From the NCBI RefSeq assembly GCF_050920415.1, contig NZ_CP169309.1: a stretch of DNA of 64,000 bases, one strand, 5' to 3'. The number at the start of each line of letters is the position of its first letter. The first letter of the stretch is position 1. This DNA is from Escherichia coli. GTDB taxonomy: Bacteria > Pseudomonadota > Gammaproteobacteria > Enterobacterales > Enterobacteriaceae. A program made the translations under genes and the position numbers. Below the pieces are notes generated by a model. It made no database searches and was not told the origin of the DNA. It saw only the letters and a list, made by a program, of their open reading frames with translations. Of the stretch, positions 8,307-19,770 are shown piece by piece.

Positions 8307-9791
8307 TTAAAATCCGCGCAGGCGCTTAGGTAACATAAGGCCCATTGCCTGAGGCTGGCTTAATTCAGTGATACCCCATACCATTGCGTCGAGGCGGTCC
8401 GGGGATTTTTTAGCGGTAGCTGGCACGTATTCCATCATTTGATTTTCCAGCGTGTACAGGCTGCCTGTGTGGGCCACCCTTCCCTGTGCATACAGTGCCG
8501 ATATTGGCTCGGCGCGGGCGAATTTACCTTTGCTTGCGTGCACCTTAACAATGCGGCCTTTGAATCCGGCATTACGTAGCGTGGCTTCCGCCATCTCCCC
8601 GCCCTGGTTTGTTTCGATAACTATCGCGTCAGCTTCATGGATCTCATAAGCGTTCATTGCGGCTTGCGCCCAGTCGTTAGGAGACATGCGGCCTGAGTAG
8701 TCGCCGTCTACTGAATATTGCGCGTGCTTACCACCACCATAAGCGGAACAAGCCATAATCCCTGTTTCGTCAGACTCTTCCGATGATGTTGTTGCCGGGT
8801 CAATGGCTATCACCGTGCGGATCTTGTCCTGCGTTATCTGCATCCGGTGAGCGGCGGTTATCATCGCTTCAGTCCATAACGCGCCTTCTTCGTCGAATTT
8901 ACGCGGGCGCTGCATGTACTGGGCCTCAAATGACCGTCTGTGCGCCTTCAGTCCGGCTTCATGGCTGTCATTGTGCTTTTTAGGCCATAGCCAGCCGTCC
9001 GGCAGGTTGTGAGCAATAGGGATGGCGAATTCGTTTTCCGGGTACAGATCCCAATAGTCGATGCTATTGTCGATCTTCACTGGCAGGTTAAGGTGATACC
9101 ATTTCTCACCACTGCCACCGCGTAACAGGTAGCCGGACAAATCATCGTAGTGGATGCGCTGCATAATGACGATCACGGGCGTGGTTTGCACTGCCAGACG
9201 TGAAGCCAGCGTGTCGTTATAGTTGGTCTTTACCTTCTCCCGCATCACATCAGAGTAAGCGTCAGCGGGCTTTAATGGGTCGTCGATAATCATCGCGCCG
9301 TTAAAGCCTGGCTCCATGTAACCAGCACGAAAACCCGTAATCTGACCGTGTGACGATGCGGCATATATCCCGCCGCCCTGTTCCGTCCACCACATCGATT
9401 TACTGTTGGCATCGTTGCGGATCTTCATGGGCCATAGCTTTTGGTATTCCTGCGAACAAACCATGCTTCTGACTGTCGATGAATTGAGTAATGCCAGATT
9501 GTCGGAATAGGAAACATGAAGGAAGCGTGTGCGGGGATTTATTGCGAGGGACCGCGCCATCATATTGATGGTTGCGATCATGGTTTTACCGTACCCTGGG
9601 GGGATGTTAATGATGAGGCGGGTAATCTCACCATTAATAACACGCTGTAGCGCATCACGGATGGCTATGTGGTGTCCTGAGATTAACATCTTCGTTCCGT
9701 TTGCTTGCTTGTAGAAGTAACGGTTGAAGAACAGGCCATCGTTTTCACATTTTGACTGAATAACCCTTTCTTTGATGGACAACATAATCAC
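8307..9791 (-). CDS. terminase large subunit
   Basis: 494 aa; Walker A-like PPGYGKT motif near the N-terminus, nuclease-like C-terminal half; follows terS. Confidence 0.6.
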   Translation of the reverse strand: MIMLSIKERVIQSKCENDGLFFNRYFYKQANGTKMLISGHHIAIRDALQRVINGEITRLIINIPPGYGKTMIATINMMARSLAINPRTRFLHVSYSDNLALLNSSTVRSMVCSQEYQKLWPMKIRNDANSKSMWWTEQGGGIYAASSHGQITGFRAGYMEPGFNGAMIIDDPLKPADAYSDVMREKVKTNYNDTLASRLAVQTTPVIVIMQRIHYDDLSGYLLRGGSGEKWYHLNLPVKIDNSIDYWDLYPENEFAIPIAHNLPDGWLWPKKHNDSHEAGLKAHRRSFEAQYMQRPRKFDEEGALWTEAMITAAHRMQITQDKIRTVIAIDPATTSSEESDETGIMACSAYGGGKHAQYSVDGDYSGRMSPNDWAQAAMNAYEIHEADAIVIETNQGGEMAEATLRNAGFKGRIVKVHASKGKFARAEPISALYAQGRVAHTGSLYTLENQMMEYVPATAKKSPDRLDAMVWGITELSQPQAMGLMLPKRLRGF

Positions 9792-10273
9792 ACCTCGTCT
9801 TCTACTTCCTGGACGATGCGGGCGATCTCTTCTTTCGTGACTTCAACCTGGACGGGCGCTTCTTCCTTGTTGCCAATAATCTCTTGTGTGACGCGTTCGC
9901 CATATTTACGCGGTTGCAGTTTTGCCAGTAACCATTTGCGCGTTTCAATCATTAGTTGGTGGCGGCGTAGTTGGTCTTTATCAACGTTTTTAGCATCATC
10001 AGCAATGTCGATGATTTCATCAGCTAATACCTCGAAACCGATCTCCTTCGCGCGCATATACATGTCCGAAAATTCAGGCACATCCCTAAACCACTTAAGA
10101 ATTGTTGAACGTGATGGCATACCAGGCATCTTCGAAATTTTGTTAACGCTCTGACCGTCCGCCACCAGCTCACAAATCTCTAACGCCTTTTCTTCGGTAT
10201 AACCATGCGGACGGCCCACCTTTTTAGCGGCTGGCTTTTTGTCGTCAGCATTTGCCTTTTTAGTGCGGGCCAT
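9788..10273 (-). CDS. terminase small subunit
   Basis: 161 aa, N-terminal HTH-like segment, acidic C-terminus, 4-nt overlap with terL. Confidence 0.5.
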   Translation of the reverse strand: MARTKKANADDKKPAAKKVGRPHGYTEEKALEICELVADGQSVNKISKMPGMPSRSTILKWFRDVPEFSDMYMRAKEIGFEVLADEIIDIADDAKNVDKDQLRRHQLMIETRKWLLAKLQPRKYGERVTQEIIGNKEEAPVQVEVTKEEIARIVQEVEDEV

Positions 10274-10283
10274 ATTTCACCTC

Positions 10284-10367
10284 TCAATATTTATTGATGA
10301 TATATACGCAAGCTACAAAACTTGCACAGTATGTTAATACTTCCAACCAGTCGAATAGCTCTTTCAT
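10284..10367 (-). CDS. small hydrophobic peptide 1 (27 aa, MKELFDWLEVLTYCASFVACVYIINKY)
   Basis: ATG 10367 to TGA 10284; single predicted TM helix; first member of a nine-gene tandem array. Confidence 0.4.
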   Translation of the reverse strand: MKELFDWLEVLTYCASFVACVYIINKY

Positions 10368-10377
10368 TGTTTACCCT

Positions 10378-10449
10378 TTACATAATCGAAAGCGCCCAGG
10401 TAATAAGGACGATAGCCAAAACCATGCAGATAAAATCTGACTCTCTCAT
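10378..10449 (-). CDS. small hydrophobic peptide 2 (23 aa, MRESDFICMVLAIVLITWALSIM)
   Basis: AAGGTGG SD 7 nt upstream of the ATG; single TM helix; 10-nt gap to the next ORF. Confidence 0.45.
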   Translation of the reverse strand: MRESDFICMVLAIVLITWALSIM

Positions 10450-10524
10450 ATTGTCCACCTTGTTTACGCGAAGAAAACAATAACAGCTAACAGCGTGCAT
10501 ATAGCCATAATTAAGAAATCACTA

Positions 10525-10599
10525 TCAGACATTGATAATCACTCCCACGATAATTAACGCTGCTATACATACGAACAATACAGCTTCGATAACATCCAT
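10525..10599 (-). CDS. small hydrophobic peptide 3 (24 aa, MDVIEAVLFVCIAALIIVGVIINV)
   Basis: AGGTGAG SD upstream; single TM helix. Confidence 0.45.
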   Translation of the reverse strand: MDVIEAVLFVCIAALIIVGVIINV

Positions 10600-10607
10600 T
10601 CGCTCAC

Positions 10608-10676
10608 CTATTGAGTTAGCGCGGTCATGGTAAGAACAATCGCAACGATCAGGAAAAAGAAATCAAGCCATTTCAT
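10608..10676 (-). CDS. small hydrophobic peptide 4 (22 aa, MKWLDFFFLIVAIVLTMTALTQ)
   Basis: GGGAG SD; start overlaps the stop of peptide 5 (ATGA); single TM helix. Confidence 0.45.
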   Translation of the reverse strand: MKWLDFFFLIVAIVLTMTALTQ

Positions 10677-10753
10677 TTTTTAAACTCCCGATAAACATCT
10701 ACGGCAATCACTGTAATAACAGCCACCAGCAATAGCATTTCATATGCGTTCAT
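10673..10753 (-). CDS. small hydrophobic peptide 5 (26 aa, MNAYEMLLLVAVITVIAVDVYREFKK)
   Basis: AGGTGAA SD; single TM helix; translationally coupled to peptide 4. Confidence 0.45.
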   Translation of the reverse strand: MNAYEMLLLVAVITVIAVDVYREFKK

Positions 10754-10761
10754 GCTTTCAC

Positions 10762-10836
10762 CTATACAACGTTATTCCACCAGAAATAGATAATGACTGC
10801 GACCAACGACCACCAGATGAGATCGTAAATGTTCAT
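10762..10836 (-). CDS. small hydrophobic peptide 6 (24 aa, MNIYDLIWWSLVAVIIYFWWNNVV)
   Basis: Single TM helix, Trp-rich; 8-nt gap to peptide 5; weak SD. Confidence 0.35.
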   Translation of the reverse strand: MNIYDLIWWSLVAVIIYFWWNNVV

Positions 10837-10848
10837 GATTAAATACCG

Positions 10849-10923
10849 TCAGCTCTCAATGAATATCATGATCGCCAGCCATACAGCGACGCAGGCAGAA
10901 AGAACAATAAGCGGATCAATCAT
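10849..10923 (-). CDS. small hydrophobic peptide 7 (24 aa, MIDPLIVLSACVAVWLAIMIFIES)
   Basis: GGGTGG-like SD; single TM helix. Confidence 0.4.
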   Translation of the reverse strand: MIDPLIVLSACVAVWLAIMIFIES

Positions 10924-10935
10924 ATTGCCACCCAT

Positions 10936-11031
10936 CTAATATTTGCTCATTACGGTTATAAGCACGGCGATAACGAAGCCAACCAGAAATATAGATATAC
11001 CTATTAATCCGGCGATGATGCTTTCGTCCAT
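10936..11031 (-). CDS. small hydrophobic peptide 8 (31 aa, MDESIIAGLIGISIFLVGFVIAVLITVMSKY)
   Basis: Single TM helix; start 2 nt after the stop of peptide 9. Confidence 0.4.
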   Translation of the reverse strand: MDESIIAGLIGISIFLVGFVIAVLITVMSKY

Positions 11032-11033
11032 AA

Positions 11034-11123
11034 CTAATCCTGCATAGACATAACCACCAGAAACAAGCAAAGGATGAATCCAGCCGCCATCCCACCGATG
11101 AAAGTTAGTATTGATGCGATCAT
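11034..11123 (-). CDS. small hydrophobic peptide 9 (29 aa, MIASILTFIGGMAAGFILCLFLVVMSMQD)
   Basis: Starts 2 nt after the stop of the upstream 176-aa gene; GAGG SD; single TM helix. Confidence 0.4.
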   Translation of the reverse strand: MIASILTFIGGMAAGFILCLFLVVMSMQD

Positions 11124-11125
11124 AA

Positions 11126-11656
11126 TCAGCCTCGTTTAAAGCTCATAACACGCGGTACAAGCGCTTCTTTTGCTTTCGGCTTACGTTTGCCTTTCTTTGC
11201 GGGTTTTTCTTCCTTCGGCTGTTCTAATGCCTGCTCGACGACTTCAGCCGCCTGCATTGCCGCTACTTGTGCTTCGTTTGATTCAGCCAGGATAGGGAAA
11301 AATGCATCGAAGATACGGCCTACCATGTAAGCGTAAGTCTCATTCGCCGGGTGAGTTGGATCAGTGATCGCCACGACGCCAACATCACTTAAAACGTGGA
11401 ATGTAGTGTGAGCGCATTCATGTACCAGCGTTCCTAACTCATTGTCGAATACTGCGATCACGTAGAAGTTACCGCCTTTCTCACCAGTGCAAGTAAGCGT
11501 CAATCCTCCAGCCAGTTCGAAATCAGGTTCGATTGGAATTCCTGCCTTTTCGCAAAATTCATAAAACATCTCGCGGGTCGGGCAAAAGAAAACGGTTGTA
11601 TGCTCAAAGAGCGGGATCTTGAATTGAGGCAACTTAATGCCTTTAGCCTTAGCCAT
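11126..11656 (-). CDS. hypothetical protein with HExxH motif (possible SprT-like zinc-metallopeptidase fold), basic C-terminal tail
   Basis: 176 aa; AGGAG SD; motif LVHECAHTTFH; lysine-rich C-terminus. Confidence 0.4.
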   Translation of the reverse strand: MAKAKGIKLPQFKIPLFEHTTVFFCPTREMFYEFCEKAGIPIEPDFELAGGLTLTCTGEKGGNFYVIAVFDNELGTLVHECAHTTFHVLSDVGVVAITDPTHPANETYAYMVGRIFDAFFPILAESNEAQVAAMQAAEVVEQALEQPKEEKPAKKGKRKPKAKEALVPRVMSFKRG

Positions 11657-11983
11657 CAGAATAATCTCCTGTCTGGTTTGCTTTTACTTCCTGTTTATAC
11701 AGCGGAAGGAATGACATAAAACACTGAAAACGGCGCTTCATCAGTACCGTTTCCAGAATTTTATAAAACTGGACCTGCTTAACATCTCTGATAAACAGAT
11801 CCGGGCGCTCGTCCTACGCATGGCAGGTGAGTGAATGGCGCTTTCTTCTACCCGGGTAGCGCCGACCTGTTAATGGGATGGATGATCCGGTATTACGTGT
11901 TTTTGACTATTCCGCCGTCGCTCGCGGGAAGGATTGCCCCGGTTATGGCTGGCTGGCGGAAACGGCGACACGTCCACGCGCTG

Positions 11984-12454
11984 TTATTTTTTGCGTAAGC
12001 ACTGCGTTTTGATATAGCTCTGAAGTCCGGTGATCTTCGCGTCTTTCTCTTTTAGTTGTTCTCTGAGGGATAGATAAGCCGATTCAGCGTCGGGAGTGAG
12101 TCTACAGGTGGCTCCATCAATGCGGCTGGCGGTTCCGGTATTGTCGAGTAATCGCACTGGCTCGGCGTTGACGTGCAACCGGATAGTACCGCTATCAATG
12201 CCTGCACGCAGATCGGCAATGTCAGATCTGATAGCTTTAATTTCATCGTGATACCTCTTATCAAGTTTTGACAGTTCGGCGTTTCGCTCCTTCATCTGCT
12301 GAATAGTGTTACTTGCTGTTTTTAGTGCGCCTTGCGTCACCGTGACTTCTTCCTGTAACCTTGCCGCCTCACCGTGGTAATAACATGTAACGGCAGCTAG
12401 CCCGGCAATAATGCAAACAACAACGGCGATGATTAACGCCTTTACCTTGTCCAT
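11984..12454 (-). CDS. i-spanin (Rz-like)
   Basis: 156 aa; N-terminal TM anchor, coiled-coil periplasmic domain; overlaps the endolysin 3' end; embedded Rz1 frame. Confidence 0.6.
12052..12246 (-). CDS. o-spanin (Rz1-like lipoprotein) embedded in the Rz frame
   Basis: Alternate frame inside Rz; signal peptide with LSGC lipobox; proline-rich mature part. Confidence 0.5.
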   Translation of the reverse strand: MKLKLSDLTLPICVQALIAVLSGCTSTPSQCDYSTIPEPPAALMEPPVDSLPTLNRLIYPSENN

Positions 12455-12933
12455 GTTTCACCCCATTCGCAAACGGCATATTCAACATCACGGCGATTGA
12501 TTAAACCTTGCCACTGCTTACCGCCAGCATAGATCCAGCGTTTAAGCTGTGCGCACGCTTCTGATTTCTTGCCGTCATTGAGTAGCTTCAATAAGGTTGA
12601 TGTTTTGAAATTGGTTGCGCCTACGTTATAGGCGAATGAATAAAGCGCCGCGCGGGTAAAATCTGATATTTCGACTTTAATATACGGGTCAATCGCTTTT
12701 GCGGTCTTGTGGAGATCTTTGTTTAACAAAGCATCGCATTCTGATTGCGTGTAAGTCTTACCAAGCATGATGTCTTTTCCGGTGTGACCATAGCAAACAG
12801 TCCATACACCGATAACATCACGATACGGATCGTACTCCACGCCTTCTAATGGTTTAACCATCACAGCCGCAATAGCGATCGCCCCACCAGCCGCCGCAGC
12901 AATAATCTTATTCTTCAGCGATTGGCTAATCAT
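12442..12933 (-). CDS. SAR endolysin (T4-lysozyme-like, phage 21 R-type)
   Basis: N-terminal Gly/Ala-rich SAR helix [17 protein letters not shown] then [18 protein letters not shown] catalytic region; start at MISQSL, 1 nt after the holin stop. Confidence 0.7.
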
Positions 12934-12934
12934 G

Positions 12935-13135
12935 TTACTTATTCCCCATTCGCGCGTCGTGTTCCTCTTGCGCTCGTTTGTTCTCCTGTGATTTGAAGTA
13001 ATAATTAACGGCAAATGTGCCTATGGTTGATAAGATACCCACAAATACAGCAACATCATTAATGGTTATCGCACCAAAAAAGGCCGTTACGGCCCCTACT
13101 GCATACGCGCACACCTCCCGTATTTTGTCGAACAT
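12935..13135 (-). CDS. pinholin-type holin (S21-like)
   Basis: 66 aa, two hydrophobic helices, charged C-terminus [15 protein letters not shown] resembling S21; GGAGG SD. Confidence 0.6.
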
Positions 13136-13153: not shown

Positions 13154-13177
13154 GCAAAAACCCGGCGCGGGGCCGGG
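13154..13177 (-). terminator. rho-independent terminator just upstream of the holin (tR'-like)
   Basis: Minus strand CCCGGCCCCGCGCCGGG hairpin followed by TTTTT, about 20 nt before the holin RBS. Confidence 0.5.
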
Positions 13178-13413
13178 TAATTACAATTTCGCATTGTTAG
13201 GAAATATTTTAATCTATTTGTTTTTTATGCGCGATTATGGCTACAGTTTCTTAATTAATAGCCCATTATCAAGTAATAATTGCATTTGCTCGCGGCTCAT
13301 TAGTGAATCTTTCCAGTATGGGTCATCAATAGTCATAATCATCACTTTGTCGCCTTTTAGCATGTAGGCTATACCGAACAAAGTATGTGAATAAACACCA
13401 TCTTCGATCTCAT

Positions 13414-19048: not shown

Positions 19049-19770
19049 TATTCACCCCGTGTTACTCGTTTAATCTCACTTTCCGCGCGGGCCTCTTCTT
19101 TGAATAGCTCAGCTATGGCGTCTTCATAGAAAACCCGGTATTTTTTCCACCATGTTGATCGGCTTACCGGAAAGACAAGCTGGTTAACCGCCTGCCGGAC
19201 AAGATCTACCGGGAAACGCGAGTACCCGCGCCCGCCGCAGTGTTGGCACGTTTTGAATACTGGCATTTCCGCCGCTTCGCTGGCTGCTTTATCCGGTATC
19301 TCGCCGCGACCTTTGCATTGTTTACAATGATTGCGAACCTTTCCATGCCCCTTGCATTTTTTGCAAAGGTGTTTTTCTCCGTAGTCGTCAAACGTAAATT
19401 TATATCCGCCGCACTCCATACAAGTTTTTTCCGTCGCGGCGCTTTGGCAATAATCCCGAAACGCGAAAACGGCAACAAGAATAATAAGATCATTGCGTTG
19501 TTCTTCATTTAATTCCATCACGTATTCGTAATCTTTCGCCATAGCTCTTAAACGCTCTGTAAGTAATACTACGGCCCTGTGTTTTTCGGCTTGCGATAGT
19601 TCCATCTTCCCTAAAAAAGCGCTATATCCAAGCTCTACGCGCGATTGCGCCATACCAGCGGCGGTAAGCGCATCCGTCGTATTAAGTGCATCAGGTGATG
19701 TTCCCCGGCTTTCGTCTGATAATCGCGGTGATTTTGGGAAGTGGAATTTAAGAATGGATTCTAAATTCAT
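19048..19770 (-). CDS. antitermination protein Q-like
   Basis: 240 aa, cysteine-rich zinc-binding region (CMECGG...CKKCKGHGK...CKQCKGRG...CQHCGGRG), position after ninG/rusA as in lambdoid phages. Confidence 0.55.
   Translation of the reverse strand: MNLESILKFHFPKSPRLSDESRGTSPDALNTTDALTAAGMAQSRVELGYSAFLGKMELSQAEKHRAVVLLTERLRAMAKDYEYVMELNEEQRNDLIILVAVFAFRDYCQSAATEKTCMECGGYKFTFDDYGEKHLCKKCKGHGKVRNHCKQCKGRGEIPDKAASEAAEMPVFKTCQHCGGRGYSRFPVDLVRQAVNQLVFPVSRSTWWKKYRVFYEDAIAELFKEEARAESEIKRVTRGE

Follow-up and report, generated by a model that had tools for sequence, protein, structure and literature searches.

A conserved, putatively structured non-coding RNA between the lysis and packaging genes of mEpimmI coliphages

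The comparison of related sequences supports the presence of a structured non-coding RNA on the minus strand of the 327-bp gap that separates the spanin genes from the HExxH gene in the window, the 64,000-nucleotide stretch of Escherichia coli DNA analysed here, which is that of an mEp021-like (mEpimmI) coliphage. The module is non-coding, constrained and base-paired, has a defined strand, ends in a terminator-like hairpin and is narrowly distributed. Its core would represent, as far as sequence comparisons can tell, a new, narrowly distributed structured RNA family without match to described RNA families, and this family appears to be confined to the mEpimmI phages of E. coli. The explanation that we tentatively favour is that of a terminator-bounded stable RNA or transcript-punctuation module, transcribed in the sense of the late operon. 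The features of the locus are collected in Table 1.

Table 1. Features of the gap and of its surroundings, in window coordinates.
Feature	Position	Strand	Basis and remarks
Terminase large subunit, terL	8307-9791	-	
Terminase small subunit, terS, Sf6-like	9788-10273	-	PF20901
HExxH gene, 176 aa	11126-11656	-	phrog_1365; ATG 11654-11656
Shine-Dalgarno AGGAG of the HExxH gene	11666-11670	-	9 nt before the ATG; conserved in the alignment
Hairpin in the minority-cassette leader	11687-11708	-	fold; no U-tract
Long hairpin and U-tract, predicted intrinsic terminator	11716-11764	-	inverted repeat; -21.2 kcal/mol
Optional module, about 58 nt	11773-11830	-	indel in BLAST and MAFFT; in 17 of 51 aligned relatives and in the window
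Hydrophobic ORF, 55 aa	11831-11998	+	ORF list
Conserved core, putatively structured RNA, 149 nt (147-149 nt in the family)	11835-11983	-	RNAalifold consensus, pair counts, covariance model, diversity
Helix P1	11978-11981 with 11838-11841	-	closes the domain; 5' strand is the first bases past the Rz stop codon
Helix P2	11968-11973 with 11895-11900	-	long arm P2-P3-P3a-P3b inside P1
Helix P3	11955-11961 with 11910-11916	-	
Helix P3a	11948-11953 with 11920-11925	-	
Helix P3b	11938-11940 with 11926-11928	-	caps the long arm
Apical loop of P3b, NCAAUCCUU	11929-11937	-	alignments, variable-site list
Helix P4	11889-11892 with 11849-11852	-	branched arm bearing hairpins P4a and P4b
Helix P4a	11885-11888 with 11876-11879	-	
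Helix P4b	11865-11869 with 11853-11857	-	
Invariant purine stretch AGAAGAAAG, three A-R-N triplets	11841-11849	-	predicted single-stranded between P4 and the P1 3' strand
Best ORF candidate, 35 aa, GTG start	11870-11977	-	no Shine-Dalgarno sequence; in frame with Rz
Rz i-spanin	11984-12454	-	PF03245 E=8.9e-25; phrog_13; TAA stop codon 11984-11986
Rz1, embedded in Rz	12052-12264	-	ORF list
Lysozyme	12442-13014	-	PF00959
Holin	12935-13135	-	ORF list
t5-homologue hairpin ACCCGGCCCCGCGCCGGGT, then TTTTGC	13160-13178	-	24 nt upstream of the holin start; position of TERM_5 / t5 in mEp021
Q antiterminator	19051-19770	-	PF03589 E=1.9e-29; 95% identical to mEp021 gp37

The gap occupies exactly positions 11657-11983 between the Rz and HExxH ORFs of the ORF list, as the earlier note had placed it, and every gene around it lies on the minus strand, in the order holin, lysozyme, Rz/Rz1, gap, HExxH gene, small ORFs, terS and terL. 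A nucleotide search of the segment, which that note had proposed, matched seven phages of the mEp021/mEpimmI group and prophages in 34 of 5426 complete E. coli genomes, at one place in each, without the multiple copies per genome of a REP/MITE-like mobile repeat. The mEpimmI phages are Nus-dependent non-lambdoid coliphages from human faeces, about as common as the lambdoid phages among the Nus-dependent coliphages of this source, and in the paper that describes them a predicted terminator is the sole annotation in the gap, the region being left without discussion (PMC11893012). PGAP places no annotation in the gap in the 12 E. coli prophage loci inspected, and the phage records carry PHANOTATE-based mini-ORFs which differ from record to record. 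The description of the gap as GC-rich holds for the 149-nt core, to which the excess is confined (0.591, in the top 5% of 149-bp windows), but not for the whole gap, whose GC content of 0.508 against 0.484 for the window is reached by one third of all 327-bp windows, nor for its 3' part outside the core (0.438). Elsewhere, parts of the window between 40001 and 64000 have a GC content of 0.52-0.54, against 0.44-0.48 in the phage late region, a rise that may correspond to a different module or to flanking host DNA.

The absence of a convincing ORF from the gap is confirmed, and indeed strengthened, by the comparison of relatives. Of the six mechanically called ORFs (25-55 aa) that reach into the gap, none stays in a constant frame across relatives, and none has a match in Pfam or PHROGs. 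Single-nucleotide indels near 11863 and 11908 are found in every combination and do not compensate each other, and a 58-nt indel is also present. The best candidate, starting at GTG 11977, acquires two unrelated C-termini through a 1-nt indel and has lost its start codon in some relatives, and its variable sites at codon positions 1, 2 and 3 number 2, 7 and 8, with no enrichment at the third position. On the plus strand, 19 of 52 relatives have frameshifts in the ORFs of 55 and 44 aa, whose least variable phase is the third codon position. Read-through of the Rz stop codon into the 35-aa ORF was considered and rejected: the frame is a different one where the alternative gene lies upstream, and an open run of 27-38 codons is nothing out of the ordinary. 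Neither a kept frame nor a third-position excess, the two marks of coding sequence, is thus found in the gap.

The constraint on the core was measured on 42 distinct loci gathered via the neighbouring HExxH protein and not via the gap or the RNA, a procedure that avoids selection bias. In this set the nucleotide diversity is 0.046 for the core, 0.071 for the terminator hairpin and 0.234 for the leader 11657-11711; at codon positions 1, 2 and 3 it is 0.065, 0.045 and 0.198 in the lysozyme gene, 0.138, 0.084 and 0.185 in Rz, and 0.046, 0.023 and 0.272 in the HExxH gene. Set against flanking third positions of 0.185-0.272, the core therefore evolves like amino-acid-changing sites, 4-6 times more slowly than the synonymous-type sites of both flanks. 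A 19-sequence BLAST-derived alignment displays long invariant runs in the gap and ordinary third-position variation in the flanking coding sequence. A constraint exceeding that on the neighbours' synonymous sites argues against the degraded gene remnant that had been suggested for the gap, as does the lack of resemblance to any protein family, plasmid, or E. coli sequence outside the prophage family. Within the core, the unpaired positions are as conserved as the paired ones (0.042 vs 0.050). Simple stability hairpins are not expected to conserve their unpaired bases as strongly as their paired ones, and the equality hints at a more specific role (ligand, protein or tertiary fold) than that of a generic 3' end.

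The core starts straight after the Rz stop codon, about 2-3 nt downstream of it, and the helices predicted in it derive from an RNAalifold consensus computed on 51 distinct aligned sequences; in the pair counts, standard pairs occupy 99.2-99.4% of the cells. The pairs were tested on 59 distinct sequences, metagenome copies included, with a mean column identity of 95%. Double-sided changes occur in 21 cells against 5.2 in shuffles, none of the 500 shuffles reaching 21, and controls in which the partner is slid by 1-3 columns give 0-2 such cells. Only five of the 898 pairs of variable core columns covary, and four of these five lie in register in the predicted helices P2 (A:U to G:C across 78 nt), P3 (C:G to U:G to U:A), P4 (A:U to G:U to G:C) and P4a (A:U to G:C); the neighbours of these in-register pairs are invariant, and the compensatory changes span 10-78 nt. 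Variants that preserve the structure are common (about 102 cells) and reach high frequency, whereas disruptive variants are rare, 17 cells in all and 1-3 sequences each; the 1-nt indels sit in the P4b hairpin loop and in the P2/P3 junction. The variation also has a strand: G:U cells outnumber A.C cells by 92 to 6, and paired cells make up 99.2% of the structure on the minus-strand RNA as against 95.0% on its complement. The 92:6 excess gives the polarity as that of the minus-strand RNA, sense to the late operon.

The core alone folds no better than shuffled sequence (z=+1.08), the folding z being -4.79 for the gap's 3' part and -2.35 for the whole gap, so that the case for its structure rests on covariation among closely related sequences. 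This covariation is consistent yet built on few events, the sequences all being close relatives. The core thus presents the purifying selection and the compensatory changes above controls that are generic to conserved structured RNAs, but not a distinctive fold energy. Among the possibilities raised in the earlier note, it is the structured RNA that gains support, from conservation, compensatory changes and strand-specific G:U variation; where that note had envisaged a spacer shared by related phages without any conservation of structure, the structure is conserved in the relatives. Structure prediction, which it had also called for, gives a closed multi-helix domain, then a hairpin module, then a 49-nt hairpin with a U-tract.

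Certain unpaired elements of the core are particularly constant. The P3b loop CAAUCCUU is near-invariant in the 51-sequence alignment and varies at its first base only; the window has a G at this base (11937), found in one of 52 sequences, in a column that shows all four bases. A second peculiarity of the window is the base at 11854, a singleton C in place of the T of the 51 other aligned sequences; it turns an A:U pair of P4b into A.C. The stretch AGAAGAAAG may be an Hfq distal-face motif. Finally, the P4b loop GGCGCU could pair with AGCGCC at 11837-11842 in a pseudoknot that would compete with P1, all the bases concerned being invariant.

The narrow distribution of the core emerges from several searches. 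A covariance model built from it (R1), applied to the sequences already collected, scores all 88 copies at 170-194 bits, these copies being near-identical; the window copy, the sole one in the window, scores 183 bits, and R1 finds no core copy in the P22-like phages whose equivalent slot holds an HExxH homologue. A 24-mer has no match in 100,044 representative genomes, and the 13 matches of a gapped motif in unrelated taxa of such genomes were all rejected by R1. In metagenomes a gapped two-block motif recovered 22 true copies, all near-identical, and two chance matches. The plasmid search came back empty, and the viral, genome and metagenome collections searched yielded no divergent relative. 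Against Rfam 15 (4227 models), the intervals 11000-12600 and 11690-11995 gave chance-level matches only, at E-values up to 10: these were HDV-like, snoRNA and miRNA hairpins of 15-16 bits, to be compared with gathering scores of 35-100, and none lay in the core.

Alignment to related prophages, proposed at the outset as a way of learning which gene occupies this slot, indicates that the slot holds the RNA module, preceded in some relatives by an HNH gene or by a 100-aa ORF. Wherever a gene has been inserted after Rz, the insert lies upstream of the core and never inside it; the module remains intact and adjoining the HExxH gene, and the sequences become homologous again from the CAG(C/T)GCG at the opening of P1 onward. 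The HNH endonuclease gene (200 aa; phrog_374, E=2.4e-55) stands between Rz and the core at L006:1896-2498 and L014:1835-2437, on the minus strand in both loci. Its last 12 nt or so duplicate the 3' end of Rz, and it looks like a free-standing homing endonuclease landed at the module's upstream edge. The 100-aa ORF is inserted after Rz in L011, L013 and L049. On the other side, the HExxH gene lies directly downstream of the module in the loci examined. The 47 viral loci obtained via the HExxH protein are largely contigs retrieved earlier via the module's own 19-mer, and the five HExxH contigs that the 19-mer scan had missed all carry the module, with a single substitution in the 19-mer.

The HExxH protein itself bears an HECAH motif and a Lys/Arg-rich basic C-terminal tail, and it has no match in Pfam, NCBIfam, PADLOC or PDB. 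Homologues 35-43% identical are found in P22-like phages (ST64T gp49, phage L Orf129, HK620 hkcC and epsilon34 gene 70), that of ST64T occupying the equivalent slot between lysis genes and terminase. From the HExxH gene to terS, the interval 10284-11123 on the minus strand is a run of very small hydrophobic, membrane-like ORFs (26-44 aa). Relatives have other sets of mini-ORFs there, and one O157:H7 prophage an opposite-strand gene of 129 aa (L010:639-1028, plus strand); this interval appears to be a variable accessory region.

Within the gap, the core is followed by elements of unequal constancy. The optional module forms an 11+2-bp hairpin at 11771-11802, which is 100% paired in its 17 copies, and a small hairpin at 11808-11831; the idea that this 58-nt insert is a mobile element was rejected, since it is found solely at the gap locus (12 E. 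coli genomes, one place each). The segment 11716-11764 is probably an intrinsic terminator, and probably a bidirectional one: a stable stem-loop with the core stem CUGGAAACGG / CCGUUUUCAG is followed by the U-rich tract UGUUUUAU and preceded by an A/U tract, and a G:C to A:U compensatory change occurs in seven sequences. It corresponds to TERM_6 in the mEp021 record and to the ARNold prediction T11 in the mEp013 record, both computational annotations. A simple terminator scan made no call here, the 13-nt loop exceeding the 3-8 nt stated as its limit. Between this hairpin and the HExxH start codon, the leader is one or the other of two unrelated cassettes. In the majority cassette (e.g. L001:3932-4000) there is a second GC-rich hairpin, CCCUGCGG...GCGGGGG, then UUAUAUUUUU, which yields a predicted tandem terminator; the window leader 11657-11711 is the minority cassette, present in 13 of 52 sequences.

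Upstream of the gap, the control elements of the late operon can be recognized. Among the mEpimmI terminators, t1, t2 and t5 are demonstrated, and t3 and t4 predicted (PMC11893012). The Q homologue carries a DnaJ-like CxxCxGxG zinc-finger repeat, and its distance to the holin gene is about 6 kb here against about 2 kb in mEp021, so that more small genes lie between Q and the lysis cassette; an N-like system is also present in the phage family. Since a t5 homologue precedes the holin gene and Q is present, the polymerase that reaches the gap is expected to be already terminator-resistant, which makes efficient termination at the gap uncertain. In a simple promoter scan, the 600 nt upstream of the core gave no promoter on the minus strand, and the core itself gave none in the antisense direction; on manual inspection, the TTGACG/CATAAC and TATTAC candidates had the wrong spacings. 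The lack of a promoter upstream of the core fits transcription as part of the operon. The window contains no tRNA or tmRNA.

The model we propose from these data is the following. The module would be transcribed as the tail of the lysis-cassette transcript, in the order core, optional hairpin module, and one or two intrinsic terminators. The terminator(s) would define or stabilise a discrete 3' end, and the 3'-UTR part of the lysis transcript would accumulate as a stable RNA of about 210-270 nt. At the lysis/packaging boundary these terminators would also serve the late operon as punctuation and would shield it from transcription that is antisense or has not been antiterminated. A conserved partner, Hfq or another host or phage factor, would bind to the invariant loops CAAUCCUU and AGAAGAAAG; the A-R-N triplets of AGAAGAAAG, together with the U-tail, would presumably suit Hfq. 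Of the properties of an Hfq-dependent 3'-UTR sRNA, those found here belong to the level of sequence only, namely a terminator with a U-tail and the invariant AGAAGAAAG. Sequences complementary to the CAAUCCUUCCC loop show no enrichment within the window, where no target for the loop came to light. The accumulation of the RNA, its binding partner and its role are what we infer, and all three stay conditional in the model.

A non-coding segment of 150 nt that evolves slowly, keeps its pairs and is free of insertions qualifies as a strong candidate for an RNA that functions in a temperate phage's late programme, and the boundary between lysis and packaging genes is where a control of the dosage or timing of the two programmes is expected. 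Isolates are in hand (mEp021, mEp010, mEp013, mEp044, mEp515 and mEp554), and all of them grow on E. coli K-12. If the module proved to be simply a terminator-associated stabiliser, the annotation would still have been corrected, and the databases would gain a new RNA family.

The main rival to the stable RNA is a control of read-through exerted in cis, in which the core would act as a riboswitch-like attenuator or as a put/EAR-like antitermination element gating the terminator(s) into the HExxH, terminase and morphogenesis genes. We regard it as possible, though doubtful. The layout of a closed multi-helix domain, terminator(s) and genes within a long operon suits such a control, and so do loops and junctions conserved like the stems, as they are in aptamers and polymerase-binding RNAs, the adjacency to the HExxH gene which the module keeps despite upstream gene insertions, and the tandem sense-direction terminators of most relatives. 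The toleration of a 58-nt hairpin between core and terminator argues, however, against a tight expression platform, and the sole obvious anti-terminator pairing, CCGUUUCC with GGAAACGG, is of chance-level length and broken in 22 of 51 sequences; no conserved, mutually exclusive terminator/anti-terminator pairing, the mark of a riboswitch or attenuator, was thus found in the gap. The phage family, moreover, already has the Q antiterminator (PF03589) and an N-like system. No Rfam family was matched either. Rfam includes the EAR/epsC motif and riboswitch classes, and put may be absent from it; homology or a fold shared with put or EAR was accordingly not found, in a comparison where put has perhaps no Rfam model. 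A bolder version, which we consider unlikely, would make the core a new class of cis-acting RNA gating transcription or transcript fate between the lysis cassette and the packaging/morphogenesis genes. Located upstream of tandem terminators, such an RNA might cause antitermination by binding polymerase or a factor, or might sense a ligand or the state of the host. If true, this would raise the interest of the module, in a phage family whose prevalence in the human gut equals that of the lambdoid phages.

More improbable is a spacer with terminators only, in which the core itself would be functionless and would owe its low diversity to a recent horizontal spread among mosaic phages. The 88 near-identical copies, the lack of any divergent relative in the viral, genome and metagenome collections and the unremarkable thermodynamic z-score of the core are what such a spread would leave. 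It is nevertheless hard to see how, without selection, a sweep in 42 distinct phages could be confined to about 150 bp when the flanks on both sides are 4-6 times more diverse; the high-frequency variants preserve the structure, the disruptive ones being singletons, and the compensatory changes lie 10-78 nt apart.

The packaging or recombination site suggested in the earlier note belongs to a wider reading in terms of DNA (pac or terminase recognition, a target of recombination or homing, or a site where a protein binds DNA, duplex or single-stranded), which we hold to be very improbable. The position of the gap between the lysis and packaging modules is in its favour, as are a short GCCAGCCAGCC iteration, the HNH endonuclease gene at the upstream edge in some relatives, and the conserved 'unpaired' bases, which would suit a protein-binding site. 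P22-type headful phages have pac in or beside terS; here the Sf6-like terS (PF20901) lies 1.5 kb from the gap, across the variable region of small ORFs, and the deposited phage genome ends lie elsewhere, the region being at about 25.5 kb of the 54.7-kb mEp021 record, so that the gap is found neither in or beside terS nor at genome ends, where pac or cos would be. Long-range compensation and the predominance of G:U over A.C indicate instead a folded single strand of defined polarity, that is, RNA. Least credible of all is a small protein or a decayed gene (a 27-35-aa ORF from GTG 11977 on the minus strand, or the 55-aa plus-strand ORF), for although the former is open in nearly all relatives with its N-terminal 22 aa conserved, and several phage records contain PHANOTATE-based small-ORF calls, the unstable starts, C-termini and frames described above, the want of a Shine-Dalgarno sequence and the blank PGAP annotation in 12 of 12 prophage loci all speak against it. 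Three further candidates were also considered: the RNA antitoxin of a type III toxin-antitoxin system was rejected, there being no tandem or direct repeat family beyond chance pairs of 8-16 nt, as was an RfaH ops-like resemblance (GGGTAG) that matches 5 of 10 specified positions only, and no boxA/boxB-like nut motif was seen by eye.

Compared with known systems, the segment 11716-11764 is a direct homologue of the phage late-operon intrinsic terminators annotated as TERM_6 in mEp021 and T11 in mEp013, with hairpin, U-tract and upstream A-tract; termination at this site is itself a computational prediction, and the annotations span the hairpin only, so that the 149-nt core and the optional module lie outside them. 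With transcriptional riboswitches the module shares a closed multi-helix domain, conserved junctions and an intrinsic terminator followed by genes, but it differs from them in having no conserved alternative pairing, an optional hairpin before the terminator and no match to a known aptamer class. HK022 put and Bacillus EAR are processive-antitermination RNAs of intra-operon or leader position. Like them, the module is a conserved folded RNA with conserved loops, placed in cis just upstream of terminators in a very long operon; unlike them, it has no Rfam match and resides in a phage that already encodes Q and an N-like protein. Among the 3'-UTR-derived, terminator-ending bacterial sRNAs, the Hfq class II sRNAs carry A-R-N motifs. 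The module is much longer than 3'-UTR-derived sRNAs and is conserved uniformly over about 150 nt instead of in a short seed, but like them it starts at the upstream stop codon, has no promoter of its own that we could detect, and combines a U-tailed terminator with (A-R-N)x3.
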